From: Escherichia coli
Lineage (GTDB): Bacteria; Pseudomonadota; Gammaproteobacteria; Enterobacterales; Enterobacteriaceae
Length of the DNA: 64,000 nt
NCBI RefSeq assembly: GCF_009931435.1
Contig: NZ_CP043414.1
Direction: 5' to 3' (one strand)
The position numbers and the translations under genes are program-made. Under the pieces are notes generated by a model that was not told where the DNA came from, did no database searches, and saw nothing but the letters and a program-made list of their open reading frames with translations. Positions 1 through 17,721 of the stretch are shown here, piece by piece. The first letter of the stretch is position 1. Each line of letters begins with the position of its first letter.

Positions 1-3000
1 GCTGCTCCCAAAACGAACCCGTGGCGCACTGGCAGTAGTGTTGAACGCCCAGAGGGGGTCTTTGAATACCTCCATTCCATGCGCCGTGTTTTTACATAAC
101 GTAATGGCAGCAGATGCACTCTCTCCACGTCGACCCGCGCGGCCTGCACGCTGCAAATAATTTGCCGGAGCTGGAGGAACGTTGTTCATTGCCACCAAAC
201 TCATACCACCAATGTCCACCCCCATCTCCATGGTCGTGGAGCAGTTCAGCACATTAACTTTGCCTGACTTAAATTGTTTTTCATTAAACTGGTTCTGCTC
301 AGGCGTTCTCTGCGCAGAGTGTTCCTCCAGACGATACCAGCTATCTTTCAGGGCCAGTCGGTCGCTGCGAGTAGACCATAATCCTTCCTCGCGGGCATGT
401 TGAATCAGCGCATTACTTTCCAGCCACTCCAGACGTTCTTCTCGGGCGATTTCTCCACCACCAGACAAACGCCAGTGACGTACAGGAAGCTCAGGCATTT
501 CAATCAACACTGCTTTTTCAGGTGCAATTTCTTTGCTACCCGGCAAATACGGAGAGTATCCCAGTAACGTGACGTCTAACGCACGTCGAGTATAGGGGCA
601 ACGCCACACTTGCTTTGGACTGTAAAATTCAGCTTGTTGTTTAATATCCAGCTGATAACCCGACTCAAACTGACGTAAGCAGGGTCGAATTGCATCCCAG
701 ACCTCAATCATTAAGTGGTTAACTAACGATTTCCAGTGAGCCTGCTCAGGTTGTATTGCCGGAAAGACTGCAATTAATAGCTTAATGACCCGGTTATAAT
801 GGCGATCGCGTATTTGTGGCCAAAGTTGATCACGTTTCTGCCCTTTGTTTTTTTTATCTGGACCCTGCAGCATTTTTACCGGGAAACGAGCCCCCATCCA
901 GCGAGGGTATTGCTCGTTTTCGTAAAAAACGGCACTGTTTTCACGTATAAAGAAATCAAGAGTAATCTTCAATAAATTACGCCATTCCGCTAATTGCTTA
1001 TCGGGATCGGGTAATAATGTCTTCCAGTCCTGCGGGCAGGTTGTAACTTTATCAATAAATGGATAGTGAATGGCTACCAGACCCAGACTTTCGAGGGTCC
1101 AGGCATTTTTAGGGCGGCGACCAAACTCACTGTATAAACAAAAATCTGCAAACTGTTGTTTAGTAAGATCAAGCCCAGACAATTCTTTAAAACTGCCTCT
1201 CATTCTATCGGCAAGGTCCACACTGCCAACCAGCTGTTCAGACAGTGTTTGCCATGACATGGTTTTCTTCTGCTGATTGCCAGAGTTAGCCTGGAGTATT
1301 TGCATCGCTTCAGCATGATCCGGGCTTAAGGAACTCACCATCGGCTCGATAATTTTAAGTGCCTGAATGTCCGCCGGGCTAAGCTCTTCATTAGCAACCA
1401 TCGCTTTTTTCAGCGCGTCAATAGAGTTTTTTAAAGGAAGGATAGAAAACTGGGCAATAAAACTCTCTAACAATGCGCAGTGTGCCGGGCTGAGCTTTGC
1501 TGATGGCTCATTAATATTGGCCAGCTCCTGGTAGCAAAGAGCTCGCAACGTCGCTTTATCGGCATCCTGCTGTAAGCGGGCAGAAATGCGGGCAGTGCCC
1601 TGACGTGAATCCGTAAAGGTGAGCAGACGTCGACCATTAAACGGTCCTAACTGCTCTTCTCTTGTCTGCGGTAATGGTGAAAACTCCAGCAGAGTAGGAA
1701 TAATTTCATTTAAAAAAAAGGGCGCGCCAAGTCGAAGCGGACGGAATAAAGGATTATTTTTTCGTTGGGTGTCACCACAGCAAACACAAGCAAAGGAATT
1801 ATTACGTCCCTCACCTCGAGATTCCGGTCTTAACAGGTTTATTTCATAGTGCTTTTGCGCTTCACTATCAATTTTCCCCGCCGTCGTTTCTTCCAGTGAA
1901 ATGATATATTTTTCACCATCGCTCGCAATCAGACGATCAAATTGAGAGTTATTGTCTAATTCGTCGTTGTCTTCATCTTCAGAATAAACATCTACATCAA
2001 GAGCAAACTCATCCACTTCGGCAGCGGCGGGTTGCGCTACCAACCAGTTCGTTCCATCACCGCGCATCTCCTCTTTGGCAGACAAATAAGCTGAACCACA
2101 CCCGGAGCAACGTAAAACTTCAAATACCGGCGCACCACAGTCACAATATTGGCGCTGCTCAAACCATACCTGACCAAATGGCCAGTCACTCTGATTTAAT
2201 TCATGTGCTTTATGTGAGCATTGTTTGTTTGAACATGCCCATAGACCCGCCAGTGTTCTGATAAATCCATGCATACGTAATGGCGTAAAAGCCAGTTCAC
2301 CTTCTCGCGATCTTGCCATTAGATCGAGGAGTTGCAGTAGCTCACGGTGATTAATATCTGGCCAGGTTCTTCTGGCAACATTGAGCAACTCACTCAAACG
2401 TACTGCCTGCCGTCCGGGATGAGTTAACGCCTGACGCAATTGCTGGGCCACACGGTAATGACAAAGCTGTTGGTAAAGATCCTGAGGGCTCAGAGATTTA
2501 AGAGAAGTTAAAGATGTGGGGTATTCATGACGAATCAGCGACTCCGATACCCGCGGTATTTGTCGATAACCGCGAACCACTTTGACATCACGTTCTGTAA
2601 CGCCCGCGAGATCAGCGACAAATTTAGCAAGCTCCTTATTACCTTCAGGAGAGTCTTCACCAATAGTGGCAGAGGTCGCGATAATCTGCACAGGTTTATC
2701 TGTGCCGGGTCCAACATTGAAAGCCTGCATAACACGACGTAAAAGCAGCGCTAACTCAGCAGCCTGAGAACCAATATAACTATGGGCTTCATCCAGGACG
2801 ATATACTTTAACATCCCCTGAGACTTTTCGATGATTGGGGCATCTTTACGACGAATCAGCATATATTCCAGCATGGTGGTATTCGTCACCATGATGGAAG
2901 GTGGTGCTTCGTAAATGGCTTCCCGACTCAAAGCTTGTTCAGGTACTTTCAACTGATCTTCCTGAATTTCGTATTTGGTATGCCGGGTTTCGCCATTATA

Positions 3001-3543
3001 TAGCGCGAAGCGTATTTTCCCCTTAAATCCGCGCGTCCATTCGCGAAGCCGCTCCTGTTGACTGTTAATTAATGCATTTAACGGATACAAGAAAATAGCT
3101 TGTGTCCCTGTTAGTGACTGGCGGGTCGATTTTTGCTGACGAATAAGATCTTCCAGAACCGGTACCATAAAGCATTCTGTTTTCCCGGATCCCGTACCGC
3201 TGCTCACTAACAAGGATTTTTTGTCTTCCAGAATTGTTCGCCACGCAGTGAGTTGATGACGAAATGGCACTGGCGCTTTGCTCAATGCATCAACCAGCGG
3301 GCTGGAGATCAGCTTGTCCCGCAAATCCTCCATTGTTTCATCCGCAGGCATCCAGCCGAATGTACTTTCGAATACCGGGTCTGCAAGCAGTGACCCCTCC
3401 TGACCGGGAGGCTGAAAATATTGTGATTCCAGATAATGAGTCAACGACTTGCTCCGCAATGCCAACTGACTTACCACCGACCTCACCGCACGCTGATGAA
3501 GCTGATTTAGAAGTGGCGCATAATGCAGTTGCTGAACGTCCAT
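1..3543 (-). CDS. Large superfamily-2 DEAH helicase, C-terminus runs off the window (at least 1181 codons visible); candidate Druantia DruE-like
   Basis: Minus-strand frame appears uninterrupted from ATG at 3541-3543 to position 1 (checked by hand at several points; not in ORF track because no stop in window). Walker A SSGTGSGKT near 3179-3205, DEAH box VLDEAH at 2782-2799, motif V MEMGVDIGG near 205-231, motif VI QRAGRAGRRGE near 121-153. Cys clusters (FACVCCGD, CSNKQCSH, CDCGAPVFEVLRCSGCG) lie between about 1770 and 2260. Confidence 0.75.
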   Translation of the reverse strand, partial: MDVQQLHYAPLLNQLHQRAVRSVVSQLALRSKSLTHYLESQYFQPPGQEGSLLADPVFESTFGWMPADETMEDLRDKLISSPLVDALSKAPVPFRHQLTAWRTILEDKKSLLVSSGTGSGKTECFMVPVLEDLIRQQKSTRQSLTGTQAIFLYPLNALINSQQERLREWTRGFKGKIRFALYNGETRHTKYEIQEDQLKVPEQALSREAIYEAPPSIMVTNTTMLEYMLIRRKDAPIIEKSQGMLKYIVLDEAHSYIGSQAAELALLLRRVMQAFNVGPGTDKPVQIIATSATIGEDSPEGNKELAKFVADLAGVTERDVKVVRGYRQIPRVSESLIRHEYPTSLTSLKSLSPQDLYQQLCHYRVAQQLRQALTHPGRQAVRLSELLNVARRTWPDINHRELLQLLDLMARSREGELAFTPLRMHGFIRTLAGLWACSNKQCSHKAHELNQSDWPFGQVWFEQRQYCDCGAPVFEVLRCSGCGSAYLSAKEEMRGDGTNWLVAQPAAAEVDEFALDVDVYSEDEDNDELDNNSQFDRLIASDGEKYIISLEETTAGKIDSEAQKHYEINLLRPESRGEGRNNSFACVCCGDTQRKNNPLFRPLRLGAPFFLNEIIPTLLEFSPLPQTREEQLGPFNGRRLLTFTDSRQGTARISARLQQDADKATLRALCYQELANINEPSAKLSPAHCALLESFIAQFSILPLKNSIDALKKAMVANEELSPADIQALKIIEPMVSSLSPDHAEAMQILQANSGNQQKKTMSWQTLSEQLVGSVDLADRMRGSFKELSGLDLTKQQFADFCLYSEFGRRPKNAWTLESLGLVAIHYPFIDKVTTCPQDWKTLLPDPDKQLAEWRNLLKITLDFFIRENSAVFYENEQYPRWMGARFPVKMLQGPDKKNKGQKRDQLWPQIRDRHYNRVIKLLIAVFPAIQPEQAHWKSLVNHLMIEVWDAIRPCLRQFESGYQLDIKQQAEFYSPKQVWRCPYTRRALDVTLLGYSPYLPGSKEIAPEKAVLIEMPELPVRHWRLSGGGEIAREERLEWLESNALIQHAREEGLWSTRSDRLALKDSWYRLEEHSAQRTPEQNQFNEKQFKSGKVNVLNCSTTMEMGVDIGGMSLVAMNNVPPAPANYLQRAGRAGRRGESASAAITLCKNTAHGMEVFKDPLWAFNTTASAPRVRFGSS

Positions 3544-6500
3544 CAATGACATACTCCTGCTTGTTCAAAATAATATTGATAGATTACCCCTAATTGCTGT
3601 GGGGCTTGCTGATAGTGAAATTCAAAAAGCGCAGACAGTTGATGTATCAGGTTATTATCTTTTTGGGTTAACAGCGCTGCGACTAACATCAAATTAAAAC
3701 GTTTTTCAAGCCGTGAGTGATATTTATCTTCAATCCAAAGCTTATTAAAAACAGATTTTAACTCTGGAGTAATAGCACTAGACCAAAGTTCTTTAGGGAA
3801 GATACTGATACGCCCAAAGCTGTCGGGGTTCCTTAATAGCATCTGTTTAGCTTCATTAAACTGCTCACGACTAACAGTTGGCAATACATCACAACCGGTT
3901 GGTAGGCTCTCACTATATGTAAGTAACATATTCGCAATGGGAGCCAGCCGACGATCGATATGTGCACGATGGTTCATAAAAGCAATAAAGGGTTGCAATA
4001 TATGTAATGCTAATGTTTTATCGTTAATCTGTTTTTCCAGATAAGTCCAACATTTTTGGAAAACATCTTTCCAGATTGAAACGGGAATCCATCCCCATGA
4101 AAAGGGTAATTCTTCCTGTATATCATAAATCGTATCGCTATCACCAGAAAGACATGATGATATTAACAATTGAACAACCACGCGGTAATTACTCGAAATA
4201 CCTCTGAACAAGTCCAGATCCAGCAAGGATAAGCCATTATTCATTTTGTACTTCTTAATATACTCTGTTAATAAACAGCAATAATTTTGCAATGGGTTGT
4301 TATCTATTTCAAAAATTAGCTCATTAAAATTTTTTTTGCGCTGTTCTGGGTCTGCTTCGCATAGAGCATTTAGTAATAAATCATTTGTCTGCAATACAGG
4401 TAGCATCCATTTAATTACTGGTGCAATGCGAGCTGTACCATCAAGTTTTCCCACAATTAACCATGGACTATCCTGAACATTCAGAGCTGAAAGATCATAA
4501 GCAAATTCATCTTTTTTTAGCAATGATTTGTGTAAGCCAGGATCCTTAAGAGAAATAGCATCAACAACCAGTTCGTCTATTCTATTTGCAGGAAAAACAA
4601 CAGAATTTTTTATATCAACCAGCAACCCTTGATCGTGTTCAATAAAACTACCATCGTAGCGTTTAATATTGAGTGTTGCTTTATCCTTTCCAAATCTGTC
4701 AGAGTAAAAATCAACACATAATGTACTATTGCTGTTCCATGCACATGCCAGCATAGCATTTAGCAAATTATAGTTCTCATAAAGTGAAATTTGTTGTAAT
4801 TTGTCATTGCGTCCTGATAAAAGAGGAAGGTCGGCATGTAAATAACGGAATTTTTCAGCTACTGGATTTTCATCCAATAACTCGATATTAAGATATCCTC
4901 TTCCAGCACATGATATGGTTAATAACTCAGCATCTATTCCATGCAAATGTGCTATAGATGCCACACCATCAAAATGAACAGAACCATCATTAGTTACAAA
5001 TCGGCCACCGCTAACCGGCTTAGGTAATAATAGTTTAAGATTAGAACCATCTTTCCAGGAGACCCGTAAATCAACGGTATTTTCCAGCATCTGCGATGAA
5101 TTATAATAAATAGCACACTCGTTTTGTGAATAATCGGACTTAAGTGTTACTTTTTCATTGTTTGAATATTTATCAATTCTAGTATCCGTTATACCAGAAA
5201 GCATAATAATGCCTTGCTGAGCACTCTCAGGTATAATATTAATATCGAAGTCTGCTGGTAAAACTACAACTTTACCGCTAAATAAAACCTCATCATTAAC
5301 TATTCGCCGGACTTCTATCTGTCCTTTTGGCATTTCTGATGCGACAGAATACCAGGCATTGTTACCTGAACGAATGGAACGCCAAAAAAGTTCTTTCTCC
5401 GGTACAATGCCATATTGCAGATCCTTTTTCCAACCGATCTTCGGCCAGGCTCGATGGACAGGATAATCCGATTTAACCAGTTCAACTTCTGTCGATTTAA
5501 TATAATATTCAATCGCAGAATCATAAAGTTGCTGGGTGCGAATTGTACAAACAGCACCATCATGTAAAACAACGCTAAATACTCCACTTATTTTAGTTAA
5601 GCTGCGTTCACTGTTTTTCAGCAACCTTGGGATATCAAACTCACCTTCTCCACTAATATCTAAATGGCTATTTTTCGGTAGCGAAATAAACAGAGCATTT
5701 AGCCTGGAACTCACAGACCCCATACCGACAAGTTTTAGCTGCGATTCACTCTCATTCATCGCTTCAAAAACCCAGGGGAGTTCTTCAGTAAGTTCATAAC
5801 CGCCTTTTGGAATTGTGTGGCCTAACAGAATTGGACCTTCATGAAGCGACAACGAGATTTCGGCCATTGCATCTGCACCAGAGAGCTTTTGCATCGCAAT
5901 AGGTAATAACTCGACCCGCCAATCTTGCTGCTCATAACGGCTTAGCATTGCCAACCTTGCCCCGCCATTTCTCCATTTTCCTGAAATGATGAGTCGGGTC
6001 TGCTCCGGCTGAATATGGCATTCAAACAAAGAGGTTAACTGTTCTGTACGCATTGTGGCCGGGAATCGGAACCGGGCATCACAATACCAACTGTCATCAA
6101 CATCGACCCAGATTCTTTCAACCTGAAGACTACTTGCACTGCGTATTTCAGAAGATTGAGAAAGTAATCGCCTTACAATCTCTGCAGCATTCGCTTCGGG
6201 GAGAACGAGTGGAAGTTGAAGATGCCAGTCTGGAGAGAGCTTACGTAATGCAGAAACGGGATCACTGCTTTGAGGTGGATGCTCACTAAGTAATCGGCAG
6301 AGAGTCTCGCAGAATTCACCGGCTATTTCATAGACCAGTTCGTTTTGCATTGTGACAGGAATCGTATCGCCTAATTCTTGTGCAATTTTAGCGGCAGGAT
6401 ATTGAGATGCTTGCCCACGAAGCGCCTGATATATCCTTCTGAAATAGGTAATCAAATAACCGCTCTCATTTTCAATCATGCGGATAGGTAAACCACCTTC

Positions 6501-6902
6501 ACAAGCCAGTGTATGCAGATAACCCGAAGCTTGCCCCAGGTTTCTTATCTTTCTTTTCCAGTAGCGAATGCCATCATTAACCAGCTTCTGTCGATGAACA
6601 TACGGAACTTTCCAGTCAATAGAATCTAAAATTGTGTCCCATTTAGGGTGTCCGACCGTATGAGTCCGGCGGATAAACTCTGCGGCATATATGCTAAATA
6701 GAACATCGCTATAGGAAATGAATATCGTTCTTGGATAACTACGAGGGGCATATGTACGCAGTAGTTCTGCCAAACTTTCGTACTCTGTATCAGTACAACG
6801 GTAAGCATATAACGCCCGTCCATCAGCTCCGGATAATGAACGGCGACTAAAAAACATGTTAAGCCATTGCAAAAGTGGGTTAACTGGAGTTTTCACAAGC
6901 AA
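3543..6902 (-). CDS. Hypothetical 1119-aa protein, no recognisable motifs; upstream partner of the helicase (candidate DruH-like)
   Basis: Single long ORF in track; AT-rich; its TGA stop overlaps the helicase ATG (ATGA at 3541-3545), implying translational coupling. Confidence 0.6.
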   Translation of the reverse strand: MLVKTPVNPLLQWLNMFFSRRSLSGADGRALYAYRCTDTEYESLAELLRTYAPRSYPRTIFISYSDVLFSIYAAEFIRRTHTVGHPKWDTILDSIDWKVPYVHRQKLVNDGIRYWKRKIRNLGQASGYLHTLACEGGLPIRMIENESGYLITYFRRIYQALRGQASQYPAAKIAQELGDTIPVTMQNELVYEIAGEFCETLCRLLSEHPPQSSDPVSALRKLSPDWHLQLPLVLPEANAAEIVRRLLSQSSEIRSASSLQVERIWVDVDDSWYCDARFRFPATMRTEQLTSLFECHIQPEQTRLIISGKWRNGGARLAMLSRYEQQDWRVELLPIAMQKLSGADAMAEISLSLHEGPILLGHTIPKGGYELTEELPWVFEAMNESESQLKLVGMGSVSSRLNALFISLPKNSHLDISGEGEFDIPRLLKNSERSLTKISGVFSVVLHDGAVCTIRTQQLYDSAIEYYIKSTEVELVKSDYPVHRAWPKIGWKKDLQYGIVPEKELFWRSIRSGNNAWYSVASEMPKGQIEVRRIVNDEVLFSGKVVVLPADFDINIIPESAQQGIIMLSGITDTRIDKYSNNEKVTLKSDYSQNECAIYYNSSQMLENTVDLRVSWKDGSNLKLLLPKPVSGGRFVTNDGSVHFDGVASIAHLHGIDAELLTISCAGRGYLNIELLDENPVAEKFRYLHADLPLLSGRNDKLQQISLYENYNLLNAMLACAWNSNSTLCVDFYSDRFGKDKATLNIKRYDGSFIEHDQGLLVDIKNSVVFPANRIDELVVDAISLKDPGLHKSLLKKDEFAYDLSALNVQDSPWLIVGKLDGTARIAPVIKWMLPVLQTNDLLLNALCEADPEQRKKNFNELIFEIDNNPLQNYCCLLTEYIKKYKMNNGLSLLDLDLFRGISSNYRVVVQLLISSCLSGDSDTIYDIQEELPFSWGWIPVSIWKDVFQKCWTYLEKQINDKTLALHILQPFIAFMNHRAHIDRRLAPIANMLLTYSESLPTGCDVLPTVSREQFNEAKQMLLRNPDSFGRISIFPKELWSSAITPELKSVFNKLWIEDKYHSRLEKRFNLMLVAALLTQKDNNLIHQLSALFEFHYQQAPQQLGVIYQYYFEQAGVCH

Positions 6903-7113
6903 CCTGCCTTCCTTTGATACAATTCGTAACAGGTTACTATCATCATAAAAAAGCTCAACCCGATGAACTCGCTAAAAATGAGACAAATCATTTATATCTC
7001 GAAAAAACTTGTTACAATCATGAGCGCTACACCGAACTTAACCATATAAATTATGTGCGTTTTGTTTATTTTTTAAACAATTACAACTATCCATTATTTA
7101 CACAGGTATCAAA

Positions 7114-8766
7114 ATGTTAGCGCAGCTTTTTGAGCAGTTGTTTCAATCGATAGACTCTACACTGATCACCAATATTTTCATCTGGGCTGTTATATTCGTA
7201 TTTTTATCAGCGTGGTGGTGTGACAAAAAAAATATACATAGTAAGTTTAGAGAATATGCTCCAACCTTAATGGGGGCATTAGGTATTCTGGGTACTTTCA
7301 TTGGTATTATTATTGGGTTACTCAATTTTAATACTGAAAGTATTGATACCAGCATCCCCGTATTATTAGGCGGCCTAAAAACAGCATTCATTACAAGCAT
7401 TGTAGGTATGTTTTTTGCCATTTTATTTAATGGAATGGATGCTTTCTTTTTTGCCAATAAACGAAGTGCGTTAGCAGAAAATAACCCTGAATCTGTTACA
7501 CCTGAACATATCTATCATGAATTAAAAGAGCAGAACCAGACTCTGACTAAATTAGTCTTGGGTATTAACGGTGATAGTGAAGGTTCTCTTATTGCTCAAA
7601 TAAAATTACTACGTACTGAGATTAGCGATTCCTCGCAGGCACAATTAGCTAATCACACTCATTTCAGTAATAAGCTTTGGGAACAACTTGAACAATTTGC
7701 AGATCTAATGGCAAAAGGTGCTACAGAACAAATTATTGATGCTTTACGACAAGTCATTATTGATTTTAATGAAAATTTAACTGAACAGTTTGGTGAAAAC
7801 TTTAAAGCACTTGATGCCTCTGTAAAAAAACTTGTTGAGTGGCAGGAAAATTATAAAACGCAAGTTGAGCTGATGTCAGAACAATATCAACAAAGTGTCG
7901 AGTCTCTGGTTGAAACAAAAACTGCGGTTGCCGGGATTTGGGAAGAATGTAAAGAAATTCCTCTGGCTATGTCTGAACTGCGTGAAGTGCTTCAGGTGAA
8001 CCAACATCAAATCAGCGAACTCTCCCGCCATTTAGAAACCTTTGTCGCTATCCGCGATAAAGCTACAACCGTATTACCTGAAATACAGAACAAAATGGCT
8101 GAAGTGGGTGAACTGCTGAAATCCGGAGCTGCAAATGTTAGTGCATCTCTTGAGCAAACCAGCCAGCAAATACTTCTTAATGCAGATTCAATGCGCGTGG
8201 CCCTGGATGAAGGTACCGAAGGATTCAGACAATCGGTTACCCAAACACAACAAGCATTTGCCTCGATGGCACATGATGTCAGCAATTCCTCCGAAACTCT
8301 AACCAGCACGTTAGGTGAAACAATTACTGAAATGAAACAAAGTGGTGAAGAATTCCTGAAGTCACTAGAGTCGCACTCGAAAGAATTGCATAGAAATATG
8401 GAACAAAATACGACTAATGTAATTGATATGTTCAGTAAGACTGGTGAAAAGATTAACCATCAACTATCCAGTAATGCCGATAATATGTTTGATTCAATCC
8501 AGACATCATTTGATAAGGCAAGTGCAGGGCTGACTTCTCAAGTCAGAGAATCAATTGAAAAATTTGCTCTATCCATCAACGAGCAGTTACATGCTTTTGA
8601 GCAAGCAACTGAACGTGAGATGAACCGTGAAATGCAATCATTAGGTAATGCTCTGCTTTCAATCAGCAAAGGTTTTGTCGGTAACTATGAAAAACTTATT
8701 AAAGATTACCAAATAATTATGGGACAGTTACAAGCATTAATTTCTGCTAATAAACATCGAGGGTAA
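7114..8766 (+). CDS. zorA: MotA/ExbB/TolQ-like membrane protein with long coiled-coil tail; ZorA-like (Zorya)
   Basis: Three N-terminal hydrophobic helices (LITNIFIWAVIFVFLSAWW, LMGALGILGTFIGIIIGLL, IPVLLGGLKTAFITSIVGMFFAILF) followed by about 440 aa of Q/E/L-rich heptad-like sequence; first gene of a three-gene operon. Confidence 0.65.
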   Translation: MLAQLFEQLFQSIDSTLITNIFIWAVIFVFLSAWWCDKKNIHSKFREYAPTLMGALGILGTFIGIIIGLLNFNTESIDTSIPVLLGGLKTAFITSIVGMFFAILFNGMDAFFFANKRSALAENNPESVTPEHIYHELKEQNQTLTKLVLGINGDSEGSLIAQIKLLRTEISDSSQAQLANHTHFSNKLWEQLEQFADLMAKGATEQIIDALRQVIIDFNENLTEQFGENFKALDASVKKLVEWQENYKTQVELMSEQYQQSVESLVETKTAVAGIWEECKEIPLAMSELREVLQVNQHQISELSRHLETFVAIRDKATTVLPEIQNKMAEVGELLKSGAANVSASLEQTSQQILLNADSMRVALDEGTEGFRQSVTQTQQAFASMAHDVSNSSETLTSTLGETITEMKQSGEEFLKSLESHSKELHRNMEQNTTNVIDMFSKTGEKINHQLSSNADNMFDSIQTSFDKASAGLTSQVRESIEKFALSINEQLHAFEQATEREMNREMQSLGNALLSISKGFVGNYEKLIKDYQIIMGQLQALISANKHRG

Positions 8767-8772
8767 TCGATC

Positions 8773-9480
8773 ATGGATAAGATTATAGGGAAACAATTAC
8801 CTAAAAAAGATCAAGATAATGAACACTGGGTATCCATGTCAGACCTAATGGCAGGGCTGATGATGGTTTTTATGTTCATATCTATTGCTTATATGCACTA
8901 CGTACGTATTGAAAAAGAAAAAATTAAAGAAGTTGCCGTAGCCTACGAGAATGCTCAGTTACAGCTTTATAATGCTCTGGATATTGAGTTTGCAAAGGAT
9001 TTACAAGACTGGGATGCAGAGATCGATAAACAGACTCTGGAGGTTCGATTTAAATCACCGGATGTTTTATTTGGCTTAGGAAGCACAGAGCTAAAACCAA
9101 AGTTTAAACTCATTCTTGACGACTTCTTTCCTCGCTACCTAAAAGTTCTAGATAATTATCAGGACCATATTACTGAAGTCCGCATTGAAGGTCACACAAG
9201 TACTGACTGGACAGGAACAACGAATCCTGATATTGCTTATTTTAATAATATGGCACTATCACAAGGTCGTACACGTGCAGTATTACAATACGTTTATGAC
9301 ATAAAAAATATCGCGACACACCAACAATGGGTTAAAAGTAAATTTGCCGCAGTAGGTTATTCATCTGCACATCCCATTCTTGATAAAACCGGCAAGGAGG
9401 ATCCTAATCGCTCTCGTCGTGTCACCTTCAAAGTTGTAACAAATGCCGAATTGCAGATTAGAAAGATTATTCAGGAGTAA
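8773..9480 (+). CDS. zorB: MotB/OmpA-like peptidoglycan-anchoring protein; ZorB-like
   Basis: N-terminal TM segment (LMAGLMMVFMFISIAYM) and C-terminal OmpA/MotB-like region (NMALSQGRTRAVLQYV, NRSRRVTF); starts 6 nt after zorA stop. Confidence 0.65.
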   Translation: MDKIIGKQLPKKDQDNEHWVSMSDLMAGLMMVFMFISIAYMHYVRIEKEKIKEVAVAYENAQLQLYNALDIEFAKDLQDWDAEIDKQTLEVRFKSPDVLFGLGSTELKPKFKLILDDFFPRYLKVLDNYQDHITEVRIEGHTSTDWTGTTNPDIAYFNNMALSQGRTRAVLQYVYDIKNIATHQQWVKSKFAAVGYSSAHPILDKTGKEDPNRSRRVTFKVVTNAELQIRKIIQE

Positions 9481-9483
9481 GAG

Positions 9484-10587
9484 ATGAAATTATCTATCGA
9501 CATTTCAGAACTTATTCAATTAGGGAAGAAAATGTTACCAGAAGGAGTCGATTTTTTTCTGGATGAATCCCCTATTGACTTTGATCCTATAGATATTGAG
9601 TTATCCACGGGTAAAGAAGTTAGTATCGAAGATCTTGACCCTGGTAGCGGGCTTATCTCTTATCATGGCCGCCAGGTTCTTTTATATATTCGGGACCATT
9701 CAGGGCGTTATGATGCGGCTATCGTAGATGGCGAAAAAGGAAAACGTTTTCATATTGCCTGGTGCAGAACTCTTGATGAAATGCGCCATAAAAATCGATT
9801 TGAAAGGTATCATGCAACTAACCGCATAGATGGTTTATTCGAAATTGATGATGGTTCAGGTCGGAGCCAGGATGTTGATTTACGGGTATGTATGAATTGC
9901 CTCGAACGACTTAATTATAAAGGAAGTATTGATAAACAACGAAAAAGAGAGATTTTTAAATCATTCTCATTAAATGAGTTTTTTTCAGATTATAGTACCT
10001 GTTTTCGTCATATGCCTAAGGGTATCTATGACAAAACAAATAGTGGGTATGTCGAAAACTGGAAAGATATATCTAAATCAATACGAGAAAAGGCAAATTA
10101 TGTTTGTAATGATTGTGGCGTGAATTTATCAACCGCCAAAAACTTGTGCCATGTCCATCATAAAAATGGCATCAAATATGATAATCACCATGAAAACCTT
10201 CTTGTTCTGTGCAAGGATTGCCATCGAAAACAGCCCCTCCACGAAGGTATATTCGTTACCCAAGCTGAGATGGCTATCATTCAACGTTTACGTTCCCAAC
10301 AAGGGTTATTAAAAGCAGAATCCTGGAATGAAATATATGACCTGACTGATCCATCAGTGCATGGTGATATTAATATGATGCAACATAAAGGCTTTCAACC
10401 TCCTGTTCCTGGGTTAGATCTTCAAAACTCAGAACATGAAATTATTGCAACCGTAGAAGCTGCATGGCCAGGCCTTAAAATTGCAGTTAACCTTACTCCC
10501 GCCGAAGTCGAAGGATGGAGAATATATACCGTGGGTGAGCTGGTTAAAGAAATACAAACAGGAGCCTTTACGTCAGCAACGTTGTAA
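9484..10587 (+). CDS. zorE: HNH endonuclease-domain protein; ZorE-like (Zorya type II effector)
   Basis: C-terminal HNH signature CNDCGVNLSTAKNLCHVHHKNG...NHHENLLVLCKDCH; starts 3 nt after zorB stop. Confidence 0.6.
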   Translation: MKLSIDISELIQLGKKMLPEGVDFFLDESPIDFDPIDIELSTGKEVSIEDLDPGSGLISYHGRQVLLYIRDHSGRYDAAIVDGEKGKRFHIAWCRTLDEMRHKNRFERYHATNRIDGLFEIDDGSGRSQDVDLRVCMNCLERLNYKGSIDKQRKREIFKSFSLNEFFSDYSTCFRHMPKGIYDKTNSGYVENWKDISKSIREKANYVCNDCGVNLSTAKNLCHVHHKNGIKYDNHHENLLVLCKDCHRKQPLHEGIFVTQAEMAIIQRLRSQQGLLKAESWNEIYDLTDPSVHGDINMMQHKGFQPPVPGLDLQNSEHEIIATVEAAWPGLKIAVNLTPAEVEGWRIYTVGELVKEIQTGAFTSATL

Positions 10588-10597
10588 ATTCCGAAAC

Positions 10598-10623
10598 TCC
10601 GTGAAAGTTAAGACTTTCACGGA
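10598..10623 (+). other. 11-bp stem hairpin just after zorE stop (terminator-like, no U-tract)
   Basis: tccgtgaaagt-taag-actttcacgga. Confidence 0.35.
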
Positions 10624-10796
10624 AGATAAATAAAATTCTCCTGATTTGTGACTCAAATTATAAAAGTCGTTTATGGCATAACTTGTCTGTTTTTTTGGTG
10701 TAATAGGTATAAAGGCATATGCTATGGTTAGCCTTATATTTAAAACTTTCCTCATACGGGTGAAGGTTAAAGCTTGGTAGATAGGTTACAGTCACA

Positions 10797-11406
10797 ATGA
10801 ATAAAGCAATAACGGTGCTTGCTATAATGATGGCTTCATTTTCCGTAAATGCGTATGTATTACCGGAAACGCCTGTGCCATTTAAAAGTGGTACCGGAGC
10901 AATTGATAACAACACTGTCTACATTGGTTTAGGTAGCGCAGGTACGGCATGGTACAAGCTGGAGAAACAGACCAAAGATAAAAAAATGGACAGCGTTAGC
11001 TGCATTTCCTGGTGGACCGAGAGATCAAGCAACTTCTGCATTTATTGATGGCAATCTGTATGTGTTTGACGGCATTGGCAAAAACAGTGAGGGCTTGACT
11101 CAGGTATTTAATGACGTTCACAAATACAACCTCAAAACCAATAGCTGGGTTAAATTGATGTCGCACGCGCCGATGGGCATGGCGGGTCATGTGACATTTG
11201 TACACAACGGCAAGGCTTATGTTACTGGCGGTGTTAACCAGAATATCTTCAATGGCTATTTTGAAGATCTTAACGAAGCTGGAAAAGATTCAGCGTACCG
11301 GTCACCGGAGAACTGGATGACGGTACTGCGAAGCAGTCATTTCAGTCGGGGGATGATTGTAGACAAATTTGTTGACGCTATTTTGCGGTTTTGGCGTGAA
11401 GGGTGA
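10797..11406 (+). pseudogene. nanM: N-acetylneuraminate epimerase (nanM/yjhT) N-terminal fragment, frameshifted and truncated
   Basis: ORFs 10797-11048 and 11062-11406 together carry the NanM signal peptide and first Kelch-like repeats (MNKAITVLAIMMASFSVNAYVLPETPVPFKSGTGAIDNNTVYIGLGSAGTAWYKL; FDGIGKNSEGLTQVFNDVHKYNLKTNSWVKLMSHAPMGMAGHVTFVHNGKAYVTGGVNQNIFNGYFEDLNEAGKD) but are split by a frameshift and end far short of the full-length protein. Confidence 0.6.
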
Positions 11407-11413
11407 GCGTTCA

Positions 11414-12064
11414 TTAATTTGATTTATTTGCATCCATCAACGCTTTTAACTGCTCCGGCGAAAACGGTGGTTTGCGTCGGTGCAACATCGCATGGCAATT
11501 AGGGCACACAGGAAGCAAATCATTAACTGGATCCAGCTGGTAATTCTCTTTAATGGCTGAAAGCGGCACCAGGTGATGCACATGGATAAAGCCTTCAGCG
11601 ATATCACCATAGATCTTCACCAGATCAACGCCGCATACGTTGCACTGGCATCCATGATGTTCGACCGCTTTATCTCGGGCCTTTTTATCGCGTTCATAGC
11701 GGTTTACTGTCACCTTTATCGCCGCACCTTCAACGTATGTCTCCTGCGACGGCAACTCATCCGGGAACAGAACGTCGGCTATGGGAGCCGCAGCGGCTTT
11801 ATCCTGATGAATATGAAATCCCTGCTCTATGAGTAGTTTGACGCATTTAGATTTTATTCCGCCGGTGAAATCCGCAGGGGTAAATTGCGTCCCCGTCATC
11901 AATGTCGCTGCGATGCCAGCAATCGCCTTCGAGGGGTAACGTCGGCCATGATATTCAATCTCATACAACCGCGCAGGCTGGAACTGATGAGTTTCTCCCG
12001 CATCCCATAAATGGATAGCTTCGATGATATACCGCCGCGGAAGATGATCAGGGAGTTTATTCAT
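11414..12064 (-). CDS. HNH endonuclease with about 140-aa N-terminal domain of unknown function
   Basis: C-terminal HHGCQCNVCG...HVHHLVPLS...NDLLPVCPNCHAMLH (zinc-finger HNH); N-terminal region has no motif I recognise. Confidence 0.7.
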   Translation of the reverse strand: MNKLPDHLPRRYIIEAIHLWDAGETHQFQPARLYEIEYHGRRYPSKAIAGIAATLMTGTQFTPADFTGGIKSKCVKLLIEQGFHIHQDKAAAAPIADVLFPDELPSQETYVEGAAIKVTVNRYERDKKARDKAVEHHGCQCNVCGVDLVKIYGDIAEGFIHVHHLVPLSAIKENYQLDPVNDLLPVCPNCHAMLHRRKPPFSPEQLKALMDANKSN

Positions 12065-12143
12065 GGAGAATGTCCTTATACGTTCTCAGAACAGGCAGCA
12101 AAAAAACAAATGAGATCAAGGTAATATATCTTCACTTGCAGGC

Positions 12144-13073
12144 TTGAACAGCAGAAAATTTGCGAGCATGATCGCAATTATTTCACTGCCAGGGATATCA
12201 ATGGCTTCCAGTAAATCGCTACAGCAGGCAATTGCCAATATAAAAATCTGGCACAAGGGTGAACAGCGCGCGCCGCATAAGCCATTGTTATTGCTATACG
12301 TATTAGCGGGATACCTGAATGGACATCCGCGCCTTTTCGATTATGGCTCGGAAATCTACGAACCTCTGCACAGTTTACTGGAACGTTTTGGGCCACAGCG
12401 TTCACAGTACCGACCTGATATGCCGTTCTGGCGATTACAAGGCGACGGATTCTGGCAATTACACAATGCCGAACTTTGCTCAACAGCAGGGAGTAGCCGA
12501 CAACCGCCAGTGAAGGAACTGACCGAACACCGCGTTGCAGGCGGTTTCGATGAACAGCACTATGCCCTGGTAATCGGCAATAAAAAACTCATCAATACCC
12601 TGGCGCAACAGATACTCGAAGCGCACTTCACCGAGAGCATTCAGGAAGAAATTGCTGACGAGCTGGGTTTTGATCTCCAGCAAATCCGTAAACAGCGCGA
12701 CCCGTTATTTCGCAAACTTGTATTGCGCGCATATAACTACCAGTGCGCGATATGTGGCTTTAATATGCGCCACGATGACACCACCGTCGCACTGGAAGCA
12801 GCGCATATAAAATGGAAACAGCACGGCGGTCCTTGTGAAATTCCTAATGGCCTGGCGCTTTGTGCAATACACCATAAAGCCTTTGATAAAGGATCGATTG
12901 GCCTGGATGAAAATATGCGGGTACTGGTCTCGGATGCGGTAAACGGCGGAGGGATCGTTGAGAAACTATTCTGGGATTTTGACGGGAAAACTATTGCGTT
13001 ACCACAGGTGCGTAAAAATTACCCTTTTGAGGGGTTTGTGGAGTGGCATCGAAAAGAGGTTTTTAGGGGGTGA
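12144..13073 (+). CDS. HNH endonuclease with about 190-aa N-terminal domain of unknown function (start may be a downstream Met, e.g. 12201)
   Basis: HNH signature CAICGF...AAHIKWKQHGGP...NGLALCAIHHKAFDKG; divergent from the 216-aa HNH gene across a 79-bp spacer. Confidence 0.7.
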   Translation: MNSRKFASMIAIISLPGISMASSKSLQQAIANIKIWHKGEQRAPHKPLLLLYVLAGYLNGHPRLFDYGSEIYEPLHSLLERFGPQRSQYRPDMPFWRLQGDGFWQLHNAELCSTAGSSRQPPVKELTEHRVAGGFDEQHYALVIGNKKLINTLAQQILEAHFTESIQEEIADELGFDLQQIRKQRDPLFRKLVLRAYNYQCAICGFNMRHDDTTVALEAAHIKWKQHGGPCEIPNGLALCAIHHKAFDKGSIGLDENMRVLVSDAVNGGGIVEKLFWDFDGKTIALPQVRKNYPFEGFVEWHRKEVFRG

Positions 13074-13114
13074 GGTTGATAACTATCGCAGTATGTTCAA
13101 TATTGCTGACATAA

Positions 13115-13297
13115 TCAGTGCAGGATCTTGCCGCTAGTTTACAACTCGCCTTCGATAGCGGCGCAAAACGAGTTCTGTTGCCGATATCCTCGGCTATGGA
13201 TATTCCAACAGTTCCGGCAGAGTTGTTTACCAAGTTTCAGGTAAGTTTTTACTCAGAACCGGTTGATGCGGTTTATAAGGCGCTGGATGTGAATTAA
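13115..13297 (+). pseudogene. C-terminal remnant of a Lon-like protease gene (possibly BrxL-like), no start codon
   Basis: Open frame with no Met translates to SVQDLAASLQLAFDSGAKRVLLPISSAMDIPTVPAELFTKFQVSFYSEPVDAVYKALDVN, resembling the extreme C-terminus of Lon-family proteases (compare Lon AAHRGGIKTVLIPFENKRDLEEIP...). Confidence 0.4.
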
Positions 13298-13628
13298 CAC
13301 ATTCCTCAGCTTATTTACAAAAGGATTATTCCCATTTGATATAATATCAGTGCCAATTTACTTTTTTCAATGGAATATATCTCGGCTAAATAACAATAAA
13401 ACTTATCGCTAATGGATTAAATAAACAATTTTCTAATTTATTTCACCACCTTTGATATAGAAATTGATGGTGTTGTCGCTGCCATTGCTTATGGTGATGA
13501 TAAAATCCACGTTTCTGGATCGGTGCGTAGAAAATCATCACTTCCTTGATATTTTGATGCGATATGATCATACCGTTCCGTAGTACCAATTTCAACTTCA
13601 GGCTAAACCCCAACATTAAAAAAATTAG

Positions 13629-13672
13629 AGTTATTCACTGATTATATTATCAATAATATAATCAGTGAATAA
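13629..13672 (-). terminator. Perfect 20-bp inverted repeat immediately downstream of the 682-aa gene, followed on the minus strand by a T-run; likely intrinsic terminator
   Basis: gttattcactgattatatta / tcaa / taatataatcagtgaataac; minus-strand downstream sequence ctctaatttttttaatg. Confidence 0.5.
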
Positions 13673-13695
13673 CATGGACTATATAATAAATTGCT

Positions 13696-15744
13696 CTAAT
13701 CATTTCCCTTACGAATATATGGGCCAAAAGCCCAAGAATCATAATAAGGGTGATGGACTAATTTTTCATTAAATCGAACACTATAAGTTAATTTTTTTAT
13801 ATTTTTACGTACAGCATTAATACTGGGCAAAGAGGAAAGATAATCTATAAACTTATCGATAGTGATTTTCCCTTCGCAACACTCAAACCCATCAATGATA
13901 TTTTTCGCCATTTTTCCATTTTCATTTGTTTGATATATCACTCCAGGTATTCGTTGAAAAAAACTAGATAATGCATATTTGTCCGCTACATATGTATCAT
14001 CCACATGATATTTCCCACCGAGCATAGTTGTAGTAACAATAAGCTTATACACACCTTTGGGTTGCCATGTTGATGGTAGTTCGAATTCTTTAATGATCAC
14101 ATCAAGATGATTAAGATAATGTTCAGAAATTCGATTTATTTGTTGAAAATAAGAACGCATAAATTTATTATTATGATCATGTATTAATGAGCTATCTCCA
14201 ACGATGTTACACACTTGCTGATAGTACTTACCATAATATATTGGTTGACCATTTGATTTTAGTTCTGTAAAAATCAAACAATCATCCAGGAGAATCACGC
14301 AATCGCACTGATAATTAGCATGAGCATCAATTGGAGAAGCTTTAATCCCCGCATCACGAACTTGTTTTATAAATTGTTGCTCATGAAATCGCCCTTTACT
14401 TGCTTGAGAAATTTTTTTGGAACCAAATAATGACATTAGAGAGCGAGTCACTGAGCTATTTGCTATTAATGCAGGCATTAAGCATAAACCGTCCATACAG
14501 GGAATAAATGGGCAATCATTAAGATCATGTGATTTTGAATTGAAGGTAAAATAATCTATCAGTTTTTTTGCTGCATCTGCTGCAATCCCCTTACGTTGAA
14601 AGAATGATAACCAACTCTCACGGCTTTTTATGACCAGCCAGCGATCCAACTGTAGGGGTATAGGTTTTGTCGATGAAAATCTTTTGCTCATTTCTTCTTT
14701 AGATAACTCGACTAAACATTGATAAGCGTGCACCCAATTAAATAATGATATATTCCCATATTCTTCATGAAGGTCATCAGGAGACATATTTTCCAACTCG
14801 CTTAAATGAAATGAGCTAAAAACGCCATCAGAATTTAAGTAAGATGGCATATGATCCTTTACCCAACTATTTAGATGAAAATGTTTGTTACTAAATTCAT
14901 GAACTTCGCTATATAGATGTGACGCTCTCATCATTAGTCTATTTCTTGCAATCTCATAATCTCGGTATAAACAAAAACTATCAACCTCAAGAGAGTAAAT
15001 GTTATTATCCAATTTTGTAAATACTGCACTACTTAGTCTGAAAAAGTCTCTTACTCTGCTTAATGAGTCAAAAACATTCCACTCATTAAGGTACCCTCCC
15101 ATTGAAAGCAAGGTTTGTTTATTCACACAAGAAGTTAGTTTCAATGGCCCATGAGTCCGTAAATAAGAAAATATTCTTCCGGTGTAATTGGCTACCTCAT
15201 CAAATGCCCTATCGATAACTCGAAAATATTCGATATCAGGTTCAGCATGAATATTAATATTTTCAGAAACGATAAATAATGGAAAAATCCTCTTCATTTT
15301 TTTAGGATCATTGACCACAACCAAGGATGATAATGATGATAAAAACATCTCACAAAACATGATGAGATTAAGTATTAATGCATGTGATTTTTTTGTATTT
15401 TTACGCCAAATACCAGCACATTTTGCAGCCCCAAAGAAAGAATTATTTATATCATGCATAATTTTACATTGACTCTCGAACTCAGAGATTAGTTCAATGT
15501 TATCAGGAAATGAGTTTACTAGCTCATTAATACATTTTTTGAATGTATTGTTATACTCAACTTCAGTCTGAACTGAAAATCTATTATAATAGATGGAAGA
15601 TATTCTCAGCACATCCAAGGCGATATCTATACTAATATCATCTCTTTTTATGTACTCACAAAAAAAAGAACAAAACTGTTTCGGGTCGTTAGCAAGATTA
15701 CTAATTCTAGTGGTATCATAAACTTTTTCCATTTTTCCATACAT
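13696..15744 (-). CDS. Hypothetical 682-aa protein, very AT-rich, no confident domain assignment
   Basis: Single long ORF flanked by more than 600 bp of AT-rich non-coding DNA on each side; possible PD-(D/E)xK-like motif CDCVILLDDCLIFTELK in the C-terminal third (weak). Confidence 0.6.
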   Translation of the reverse strand: MYGKMEKVYDTTRISNLANDPKQFCSFFCEYIKRDDISIDIALDVLRISSIYYNRFSVQTEVEYNNTFKKCINELVNSFPDNIELISEFESQCKIMHDINNSFFGAAKCAGIWRKNTKKSHALILNLIMFCEMFLSSLSSLVVVNDPKKMKRIFPLFIVSENINIHAEPDIEYFRVIDRAFDEVANYTGRIFSYLRTHGPLKLTSCVNKQTLLSMGGYLNEWNVFDSLSRVRDFFRLSSAVFTKLDNNIYSLEVDSFCLYRDYEIARNRLMMRASHLYSEVHEFSNKHFHLNSWVKDHMPSYLNSDGVFSSFHLSELENMSPDDLHEEYGNISLFNWVHAYQCLVELSKEEMSKRFSSTKPIPLQLDRWLVIKSRESWLSFFQRKGIAADAAKKLIDYFTFNSKSHDLNDCPFIPCMDGLCLMPALIANSSVTRSLMSLFGSKKISQASKGRFHEQQFIKQVRDAGIKASPIDAHANYQCDCVILLDDCLIFTELKSNGQPIYYGKYYQQVCNIVGDSSLIHDHNNKFMRSYFQQINRISEHYLNHLDVIIKEFELPSTWQPKGVYKLIVTTTMLGGKYHVDDTYVADKYALSSFFQRIPGVIYQTNENGKMAKNIIDGFECCEGKITIDKFIDYLSSLPSINAVRKNIKKLTYSVRFNEKLVHHPYYDSWAFGPYIRKGND

Positions 15745-16421
15745 CCTATTGTCTAAATTACTATAAAATTAGCCACTTAACTAATAATTATAAATTTCAT
15801 CTTTTGCACCTTGCATTTTTATAACCAATGAAATCTACAACAAGCAACTGATGGATAATCCGATATTGGTCGCATTTAATGGCATGGTAGCAAAGTTTTC
15901 ATCACATACCTCCTTTGCACCAGAATAAACGCCAGAGACCTGAAATTGCGAGTACACTACAGAAATTGTACTGCCGGTCCCATCAGCATAAAACCATAGT
16001 TACACAGGTAATCATCATTATTCACCAAGATAATAAATATTATTCGGTAGAATAGCGTTCTCAGGTGGTCAGTAAAATTGTCTTCAACAAGATGTCTGCG
16101 CATCTCGTCTGCTAGCCCTACATAACTGCTCTCGACCGAAACTATTTATTGAATGTTCACCAAGGTGGGCGTGGAGACAAAATGACGTCTTTTGATATTA
16201 GCTACCTGAGCCACATGGTCAAAACGTTCAAGTAGCATAGCGAAACCACCCTGCCCACGTAATGTGGACGATGCAGCTTCCAGCCAGAGCAAACTTGGGA
16301 CCATCGACTACCAAATGAAGAATACTGAACTGCTTTTCTGGCAGGCCTATATACTGCACGGATATGGGTGATTTCAGACACAAAAAAAGCCGCTCTTGAG
16401 CGACTCGATTTGCATACGGTG

Positions 16422-16506
16422 TGGTGCCGAAGGCCGGACTCGAACCGGCACGTATTTCTACGGTTGATTTTGAATCAACTGCGTCTACCGATTTCGCCAC
16501 TTCGGC
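16422..16506 (-). tRNA. leuX: tRNA-Leu (anticodon CAA), leuX
   Basis: Minus-strand sequence GCCGAAGTGGCGAAATCGGTAGACGCAGTTGATTCAAAATCAACCGTAGAAATACGTGCCGGTTCGAGTCCGGCCTTCGGCACCA, with T-loop GGTTCGAGTCC and 3' CCA; matches recalled leuX. Confidence 0.9.
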
Positions 16507-16701
16507 ACTGAAGAGGTATGCGGAAAACGTTGTGGATTATACCTGTCACGCGCCACCATGCAAGCGCCAGCTTGCTCGCACCTCGCTAAGTGCTGAAATT
16601 TTCAGCATTGCATTCCGCGATGTGTAACCTTTGTCACACTCCAGGCACCCCGCCCTACCATGCTCTACACTTCCCAGACAACACCAGAGAAGGACAAAAA
16701 T

Positions 16702-17721
16702 ATGTCGATGATAAAAAGCTATGCCGCAAAAGAGGCTGGCGGCAAACTGGAAGTTTATGAGTACGATCCCGGTGAACTGAAACCACAAGATGTCGAAGTG
16801 CAGGTGGATTACTGCGGGATCTGCCATTCCGATCTGTCGATGATCGACAACGAATGGGGATTTTCACAGTATCCGCTGGTTGCCGGGCATGAGGTGATTG
16901 GGCGCGTGGTGGCGCTCGGGAGCGCCGCGCAGGATAAAGGTTTGCAGGTCGGTCAGCGTGTCGGGATTGGCTGGACGGCGCGTAGCTGTGGTCACTGCGA
17001 CGCCTGTATTAGCGGTAATCAGATCAACTGTGAGCAAGGTGCGGTGCCGACGATTATGAATCGTGGCGGCTTTGCTGAGAAGTTGCGTGCGGACTGGCAA
17101 TGGGTGATTCCACTGCCAGAAAATATCGACATTGAATCTGCCGGGCCACTGTTGTGCGGCGGTATCACGGTCTTTAAACCACTGTTGATGCACCATATCA
17201 CTGCCACCAGCCGCGTTGGGGTAATTGGTATTGGCGGGCTGGGGCATATCGCTATAAAACTTCTGCACGCAATGGGATGCGAGGTGACGGCCTTTAGTTC
17301 GAATCCGGCGAAAGAGCAGGAGGTGCTGGCGATGGGTGCCGATAAAGTGGTGAATAGCCGCGATCCGCAGGCACTGAAAGCACTGGTGGGGCAGTTTGAT
17401 CTCATTATCAACACCGTCAACGTCAGCCTCGACTGGCAGCCTTATTTTGAGGCGCTGACGTATGGCGGTAATTTCCATACAGTCGGCGCGGTCCTCACGC
17501 CGCTGTCTGTTCCGGCCTTTACGTTAATTGCGGGCGACCGCAGCGTCTCTGGTTCAGCAACAGGTACACCTTATGAGCTGCGTAAGCTGATGCGCTTTGC
17601 CGCCCGCAGCAAGGTTGCACCGACTACCGAACTGTTCCCAATGTCGAAAATTAACGACGCCATTCAGCATGTACGCGATGGTAAAGCGCGCTACCGAGTG
17701 GTCCTGAAAGCAGATTTTTGA
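16702..17721 (+). CDS. ahr: NADPH-dependent aldehyde reductase (zinc alcohol dehydrogenase family)
   Basis: Protein starts [14 protein letters not shown], contains GHEVIG and CGICHSDL; adjacent to leuX as in K-12. Confidence 0.9.

Follow-up and report, generated by a model that had tools for sequence, protein, structure and literature searches.

The fragment studied here occupies positions 10588–11410 of the window, by which we mean the whole 64,000-nt stretch of Escherichia coli DNA that was analysed. It is bounded by the zorE stop codon (10585–10587) on one side and by that of an HNH gene on the minus strand (11414) on the other (Table 1). The sequence to its left, positions 1–10587, aligns at 98.9–99.3% identity to records annotated zorA2-zorB2-zorE and druH-druE, with the genes adjacent and collinear. 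This cargo is the published OI-172 anti-phage island, made up of ARMADA II, Druantia III and Zorya II, which has been reported in 426 of 3792 genomes, including SMS-3-5 (bioRxiv 10.1101/2025.09.22.677730). The armABCD genes sit past the left end of the window and occur in 24A16CRGN010, the closest genome (99.3% identical over 17 kb). The OI-172 island of O157:H7 is likewise ~99% identical to the cargo in the window over 8.8 kb and bears the same RefSeq gene names. The preprint that describes OI-172 makes no mention of nanM, nanS, leuX or the island junctions (bioRxiv 10.1101/2025.09.22.677730).

Table 1. Features in and around the nanM′ fragment, in window coordinates.
Feature	Position	Strand	Basis
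DruE′ (left cargo)			Name from near-identical RefSeq records
DruH (left cargo)	3543..6902		Name from near-identical RefSeq records
ZorA2-ZorB2-ZorE (left cargo)	7114..10587		Names from near-identical RefSeq records
zorE, last gene of type II Zorya system, right-hand end of OI-172-type cargo	9484..10587	+	ORF; name from near-identical RefSeq records
209-bp spacer, zorE stop to nanM ATG	10588..10796	+	Read from sequence
nanM′ pseudogene, codons 1–165 of 368 of the N-acetylneuraminate mutarotase gene	10797..11292	+	Alignment to K-12 and other nanM alleles, Pfam, NCBIfam, PGAP
A7 homopolymer, +1 frameshift	10980..10986	+	A6 in K-12 and other intact alleles
Deletion junction, TTCA(G/A)C microhomology, nanM codon 165/nanS	11289..11294	+	Alignment
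Right-hand copy (172 bp) of direct repeat: nanS tail and last 51 bp before HNH stop region	11289..11460	+	
′nanS tail, last 37 codons and TGA of the sialate O-acetylesterase gene	11293..11406	+	Alignment
26-codon ORF antisense to nanS tail, YthB-like frame	11337..11414	-	Translations; PGAP hypothetical protein WP_212734751.1
HNH endonuclease gene	11414..12064	-	Pfam HNH match; in empty-site N24; widespread beside nanS
Phosphorothioated-DNA-binding restriction endonuclease (PTRE)	12201..13073	+	NCBIfam NF045808, 436 bits against a cutoff of 180
leuX tRNA-Leu(CAA), locus anchor	16422..16506	-	ARAGORN, annotation of closest genome

NanM is a periplasmic N-acetylneuraminate mutarotase/anomerase (PMC8141875). 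From the ATG to codon 165 the fragment is ~94.6% identical in nucleotides to K-12 nanM (yjhT), with which it shares its orientation relative to leuX, and the alignment shows that the signal-peptide region and the first Kelch blades are retained. The A7 run splits this stretch into two ORFs (10797–11048 and 11062–11406), both of which match NanM, so that the frame that is uninterrupted with A6 is broken here. When the frame is corrected, the product matches NCBIfam NF010730 over profile positions 6–177 of 384 (254.7 bits) and TIGR03547 with 201.8 bits, each below its cutoff (416 and 256.35, respectively), and Pfam NANM (PF24996) over positions 2–146 of 350. The family profiles span the N-terminal 45% of NanM alone, which falls short of a full-length six-bladed propeller (~368 residues). 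The catalytic residues of NanM, reportedly traced by Severi and colleagues in 2008 to Glu209 and Arg215, would lie beyond codon 165. Unlike its K-12 counterpart, the fragment thus comprises 45% of the gene, is frameshifted, is fused to a nanS tail, lacks an upstream nanC and, as described below, is under relaxed constraint. PGAP labels it 'frameshifted; incomplete' in near-identical RefSeq records.

The surroundings of the fragment are equally unlike the nanC-nanM-nanS operon, with zorE and the spacer upstream and 37 nanS codons downstream. Homology to the K-12 nanC-nanM region begins at ~10777, about 20 nt 5′ of the nanM ATG, which is the nanC stop/intergenic boundary. At the other end, nanM homology stops at 11292 and nanS homology begins at 11289. 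Approximately 1.53 kb is gone at this junction, comprising the 3′ two-thirds of nanM, the intergenic region and ~87% of nanS, and the alignment to K-12 nanC-nanM-nanS contains a single gap of 1531 columns (736–2266). Since the tail continues the nanM reading frame from codon 165, the second ORF ends in 37 residues of NanS sequence and not in junk. The tail also carries a 12-bp deletion between 11344 and 11345, together with clustered substitutions. A sequence-only reading of this locus had described the N-terminal portion of nanM alone, split over two ORFs and with nanC missing upstream, and each of these points is confirmed by the alignments and profiles; no intact nanM aligns across 10797–11406, where the frame is shifted and homology ends at 11292. 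The same reading saw no nanS downstream, which has to be corrected, as 11293–11406 consists of the last 37 codons of nanS and its stop.

We found the nanM′/′nanS junction of the window in 92–99 of 5426 complete E. coli genomes, including SMS-3-5, and it is identical in all aligned carriers. Because the same junction recurs in 92–96 independent complete genomes, the fragment is neither a chance product nor an assembly artefact. Among these genomes we found no island-free carrier; the junction occurs only with the island, and it has a single origin. The wider unit of zorE, the 209-bp spacer and the nanM start is present in 561–572 of the 5426 genomes, and the spacer travels with zorE without exception in E. 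coli. The spacer itself includes the motif GGTGAAGGTTAAAGCTTGGTAGA and a perfect 10-bp hairpin with no T-run (10599–10622), and is 92% identical to that of GF4-3 and ~91% identical to that of O157. We considered a 3′ trace of nanC in the spacer, which could not be established: its last ~25 nt are only ~60% similar, a weak match, and the nanC frame contains stop codons. No Rfam family matched between 10400 and 12300, and the promoter and terminator scan of the fragment region gave no signal above shuffled controls.

Among the island variants, identity falls from ~99% in the body to 91–94% from the 3′ end of zorE through the spacer (10455–10812, compared with loci L005 and L007). This drop exceeds what simple neutral drift would be expected to give, and suggests a mosaic boundary at this point.

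The organisation of the whole locus is visible in the closest genome. It begins with fimB-nanC-nanM-nanS, in which nanM is intact, continues with the insert (IS4-family relic-UDG-ArmD-ArmC-ArmB-ArmA-DruE-DruH-ZorA2-ZorB2-ZorE-spacer-nanM′-′nanS), and ends with HNH-PTRE-hypothetical-leuX. Relative to the empty site of N24, the insert amounts to 32.6 kb. The closest genome therefore holds, ~33 kb from the fragment and beyond the island, an intact nanC-nanM and a full-length nanS that is frameshifted by a 1-nt deletion. Next to this left-hand nanS come the final 51 bp of the HNH 3′ region and then the IS4 relic, for which we detected no convincing terminal inverted repeat at the left junction. 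The island is consequently flanked by direct repeats, with a 184-bp partner of the 172-bp right-hand copy at the fim-side end of the ~32.6-kb island (86% identity between the two), and the first 516 bp of nanM are present twice at 93.6% identity. The partner copy lies outside the window, and within the window there are no repeats relevant to the island. Among the best 60 matching carriers, 59 contain two or more matching places, as would be expected if they had a resident nan locus elsewhere. From these carriers and the closest genome, we infer that the genome of the window also has a resident nanCMS. The island-linked nanM would be redundant, given the complete resident nanC-nanM-nanS-HNH′ block next to the island in this lineage.

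On the leuX side, we considered HNH and PTRE as island cargo and rejected this, as the island-free N24 has the order fimB-nanC-nanM-nanS-HNH-PTRE. Both genes are ancestral neighbours of nanS. The nanS-tail-HNH-PTRE block is present at a coverage of at least 80% in 325 genomes, and partly deleted versions of it occur in thousands. Genomes of the K-12 type match the block partially, under the annotations 'PT-DNA restriction endonuclease' and 'YthB', and the K-12 pseudogene yjhR is the remnant counterpart of PTRE (12201–13073) in the same ancestral neighbourhood. K-12 and the window have lost different members of this neighbourhood: the body of HNH is deleted in K-12, whereas the window keeps HNH whole and has its deletion in nanS.

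The 26-codon antisense ORF has its ATG overlapping the HNH stop codon (TAATG), and its frame, antisense to the nanS tail, is the one that K-12 ythB uses. HNH-intact genomes carry a YthB-like version of 26–30 codons that starts at this TAATG overlap. In K-12, where nearly the whole HNH body is missing (window ~11418–12049), YthB (MNKLPAHLSRQNCK..., K-12 locus L002 42598–42696) combines the first five HNH codons (MNKLP; window 12046–12064) with the nanS-antisense frame, and it is apparently a deletion-fusion product with its start region taken from HNH. Across E. coli the divergent HNH/PTRE pair (11414–13073) is found with many different internal deletions, at coverages of 68%, 58%, 51%, 44% and 20%, which suggests a widely decaying phosphorothioate-dependent restriction module.

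Between PTRE and leuX, a frameshifted fragment (~13118–13293) is annotated as a hypothetical protein or peptidase. A 682-codon ORF (13696–15744, minus strand) adjoins leuX and matched no Pfam or NCBIfam family; just downstream of it lies a perfect 21-bp inverted repeat with a 2-nt separation (13630–13673). Neither the ORF list nor the annotation of the closest genome contains an integrase between 13074 and 16421, and no direct repeat of the leuX 3′ end occurs in 1–17000. The window does not hold an integrase-borne leuX island of the KpLE2/CP4 kind, while some other carriers do have an integrase-type island inserted at leuX.

To look for undeleted forms, we searched with a chimeric query composed of the spacer, nanM′ and the rest of K-12 nanM. 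It matched end to end in four genomes (GF4-3, S43, MB06022 and TW14425), each of which has a single nanM. The two examined in detail, GF4-3 and TW14425, have the order zorE-spacer-intact nanM-nanS′-HNH. In GF4-3 the island lies between the start of gntP and the position of the nanC stop, and gntP-fim-nanC is absent (L009 14880–16075, L007). Its left end also differs, with a UDG-like stretch of ~72% similarity and no IS4 relic. The right boundary of the island is accordingly at the nanC stop/nanM upstream region, and since four genomes still have this form, nanM was originally left whole behind the 209-bp spacer. The truncation is a later, internal nanM-to-nanS deletion and not the boundary of the island. 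The four-genome type, in which the island replaces host genes, could have arisen before or after the duplicated type. In all four, the island is directly flanked by uxuA (gntP start) and nanM. Strains of the GF4-3 type should lack type 1 fimbriae, as the whole fim operon is missing in GF4-3.

O157:H7 shows a further state of the same locus. Its left junction is identical to that of the closest genome (..CTCCGGCG abutting TGCGGCAC..) and it has the same spacer, but its OI-172 copy carries a nanM remnant with another form of deletion than the window. This relic consists of the ATG and 13 nt, a 342-bp gap, and then nanM to ~100 nt past the junction of the window. Its end is fused to the HNH/PTRE intergenic region, so that HNH and the antisense ORF are deleted and the island is kept. 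As the deletions differ, a longer island-linked nanM(-nanS-HNH) was cut down independently in the window type and in the O157 type.

The O157 type has also reached a plasmid. In the 168-kb NDM-5 plasmid pEC22-NDM-5 (NZ_CP060893.1; L016 1–9700), DruE-DruH-ZorA2-ZorB2-ZorE is followed by a 249-bp nanM relic of the O157 type and then by ISKpn26; given this relic, the defence genes of the plasmid were evidently captured from an O157-type chromosome. The zorE-spacer query matched five plasmid places.

We then compared substitutions among five relics and four intact alleles, a small sample, with E69 as divergent reference. Relics differ from intact alleles by a dN of 0.029–0.037 and a dS of 0.12–0.19 (dN/dS 0.18–0.31), compared with a dN of 0.003–0.008 and a dS of 0.04–0.14 between pairs of intact alleles, so that dN is raised 5–10-fold in the relic comparisons. 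At thirteen sites all five relics share a state that none of the four intact alleles has, and seven of these 13 changes are non-synonymous. At 12 of these sites the relic state is derived, as E69 carries the state of the intact alleles there. The A-run is polymorphic, being A7 in five aligned carriers including the window and A6 in CFSAN061771; CUPS SST 5/1 presumably has A6 as well, because its annotation carries no 'frameshifted' flag. Some relic copies contain blocks of resident-type bases, including ~45 nt just 3′ of the junction in the window; these are short patches of gene conversion. The fragment thus combines homology and disabling lesions with relaxed constraint and with independent, differing lesions in related lineages, as a pseudogene does.

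Relic and resident nanM of the same genome type differ by a dS of 0.187. Together with the nanS tail, which is at most 80% identical to the resident tails of 4917 other genomes, this argues that the two nanM copies are not a recent duplicate. The nanS-tail allele is found at 90% identity or more in ~92 genomes, all of them relic carriers. A donor scan, in which a conserved third-position-degenerate nanM pattern was run against the contigs of species-representative genomes, returned one locus, that of 'E. coli' E69 (CP089930.1; L006). With a dS of ~0.5, E69 is probably, contrary to its name, a member of a divergent Escherichia lineage, and it was rejected as donor of the island nanM because it is far more divergent. 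Import of nanM′ from a non-coli Escherichia was rejected in turn, as E69 lacks the relic state at all 13 fixed sites and the synonymous distance comes close to the range seen within E. coli. The nanS tail, which may still have come from such a source, shares about 10 states with E69. It is much more divergent than nanM′, whose synonymous divergence barely exceeds the E. coli range.

Taken together, 10588–11410 is quite probably a non-functional relic of a second nanM-nanS copy, situated at the leuX-side end of an integrase-less OI-172-type island and bearing a decay history of its own. The duplicated arrangement, to judge from its structure, would have come from recombination that moved the island and its right flank as one, in which one end may have been homologous (on the nanM, HNH or leuX side) and the other an illegitimate or IS-associated join, 51 bp inside the 3′ end of HNH, at the IS4-family relic. 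Decay of the copy included the ~1.53-kb in-frame deletion between TTCA(R)C microhomologies, which joined nanM codon 165 to the last 37 nanS codons, a 12-bp loss in the nanS tail, slippage of the A-run from A6 to A7 with a shift of frame, and an excess of amino-acid-changing substitutions alongside short gene conversion from resident-type alleles. Today the relic would have no role beyond offering homology.

Defence-island hot spots contain remnants of flanking genes that are left behind by homology-facilitated illegitimate recombination or by exchange of large fragments. The island described here resembles such cases in having no integrase, a fixed locus, a carried piece of donor flank, one homologous junction and another at an IS relic; its recombination mechanism is deduced from structure.

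The sequence-only reading had instead taken the fragment as a scar, left when earlier island content was replaced by the Zorya and helicase cargo, so that the genome's own nanM would remain after nanC, nanS and KpLE2-like content had been overwritten. The absence of nanC upstream, the orientation relative to leuX as in K-12, and GF4-3, whose island fills exactly the interval from the gntP start to where nanC would stop, with gntP-fim-nanC missing, are all compatible with such an overwriting. We nevertheless regard it as unlikely, because nanM is broken by an internal deletion that reaches into nanS and not by the cargo boundary, four genomes retain the gene whole after the same spacer, nanS survives as its tail, HNH and PTRE belong to the ancestral neighbourhood, and the closest genome keeps an intact resident nanC-nanM beside its frameshifted nanS. 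We also saw no sign of a KpLE2-type replacement, with neither an integrase nor an att repeat at leuX (13074–16421). The placement of the fragment at a junction of the Zorya/helicase island holds insofar as it borders the cargo in the leuX-fim region; the truncation itself is not the island boundary, as the intact nanM genes behind the same spacer show. Similarly, the alignment to K-12 nanC-nanM-nanS and to other strains that had been proposed for finding the breakpoints did locate them, but placed the deletion within nanM-nanS and not at the cargo edge.

Direct repeats flanking the island (184/172 bp and the 516 bp of nanM), with an IS4-family transposase relic exactly at the left junction, could also point to a local duplication of nanM-nanS-HNH′ upon island insertion, for example IS4-mediated or replicative, after which the copies diverged in place. 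This origin is decidedly unlikely: the relic-resident dS of 0.187 is greater than that between unrelated resident alleles, the relic nanS tail is no more than 80% identical to any resident tail (4917 genomes), and the island-linked nanM is the sole copy in the four-genome configuration. Retention for a function, whether as a small secreted peptide (the 83-codon ORF with the NanM signal sequence), as the 3′ end or terminator of HNH, or as the YthB-like antisense ORF, is very improbable. The signal-peptide region is intact by alignment, the deletion ends 37 bp short of an antisense ORF that overlaps the HNH stop and is open in all aligned carriers, and the K-12 YthB protein has been detected by others. 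Yet the frame varies among carriers (A6 or A7), dN is raised, O157:H7 has deleted HNH and the antisense ORF and still keeps the island, and the scans for promoters, terminators and Rfam families came back empty.

The fragment is an ordinary pseudogene, already annotated in RefSeq as a frameshifted, incomplete nanM and located beside an island already described. Its value as a historical marker is modest: it places the true right boundary of the island at the nanC/nanM junction, identifies HNH and PTRE as old residents, and shows that host DNA from the flank moved along with the island. Island lineages can be told apart by their relic variants, the plasmid-borne copy included. The locus also cautions against calling nanM lost from this site, as the resident nan locus is usually on the other side of the island.

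More tentatively, the nanM′-′nanS relic and its repeat partner may be the trace of a spread of the 33-kb OI-172 island that needs no integrase, and could even serve as a substrate for it, although we would lean against this. Were it so, the island would travel with a piece of its old right-hand flank, with the nanM, HNH or leuX side acting as homology arm and the other end joined illegitimately. The three relic types would then serve as lineage barcodes, as in the derivation of the pEC22-NDM-5 copy from an O157-type chromosome, and the flanking repeats could allow RecA-dependent loss or re-capture of the island.

The resident nanS is itself damaged in many genomes, by the 1-nt deletion in the closest genome and with partial annotation in N24, O157:H7 and GF4-3 (L003 8760–9560, L004 11149–11715, L014 2692–3036 and L007 15604–15948), and the nan end of the locus is decaying generally. 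In SCPM-O-B-12142 (L001 15794–18179), a copy of IS1B connects fimD and zorA2, both truncated; the IS1 deletion has removed fimD′-fimB, the resident nanCMS and most of the island, leaving the nanM relic as the only nanM sequence.
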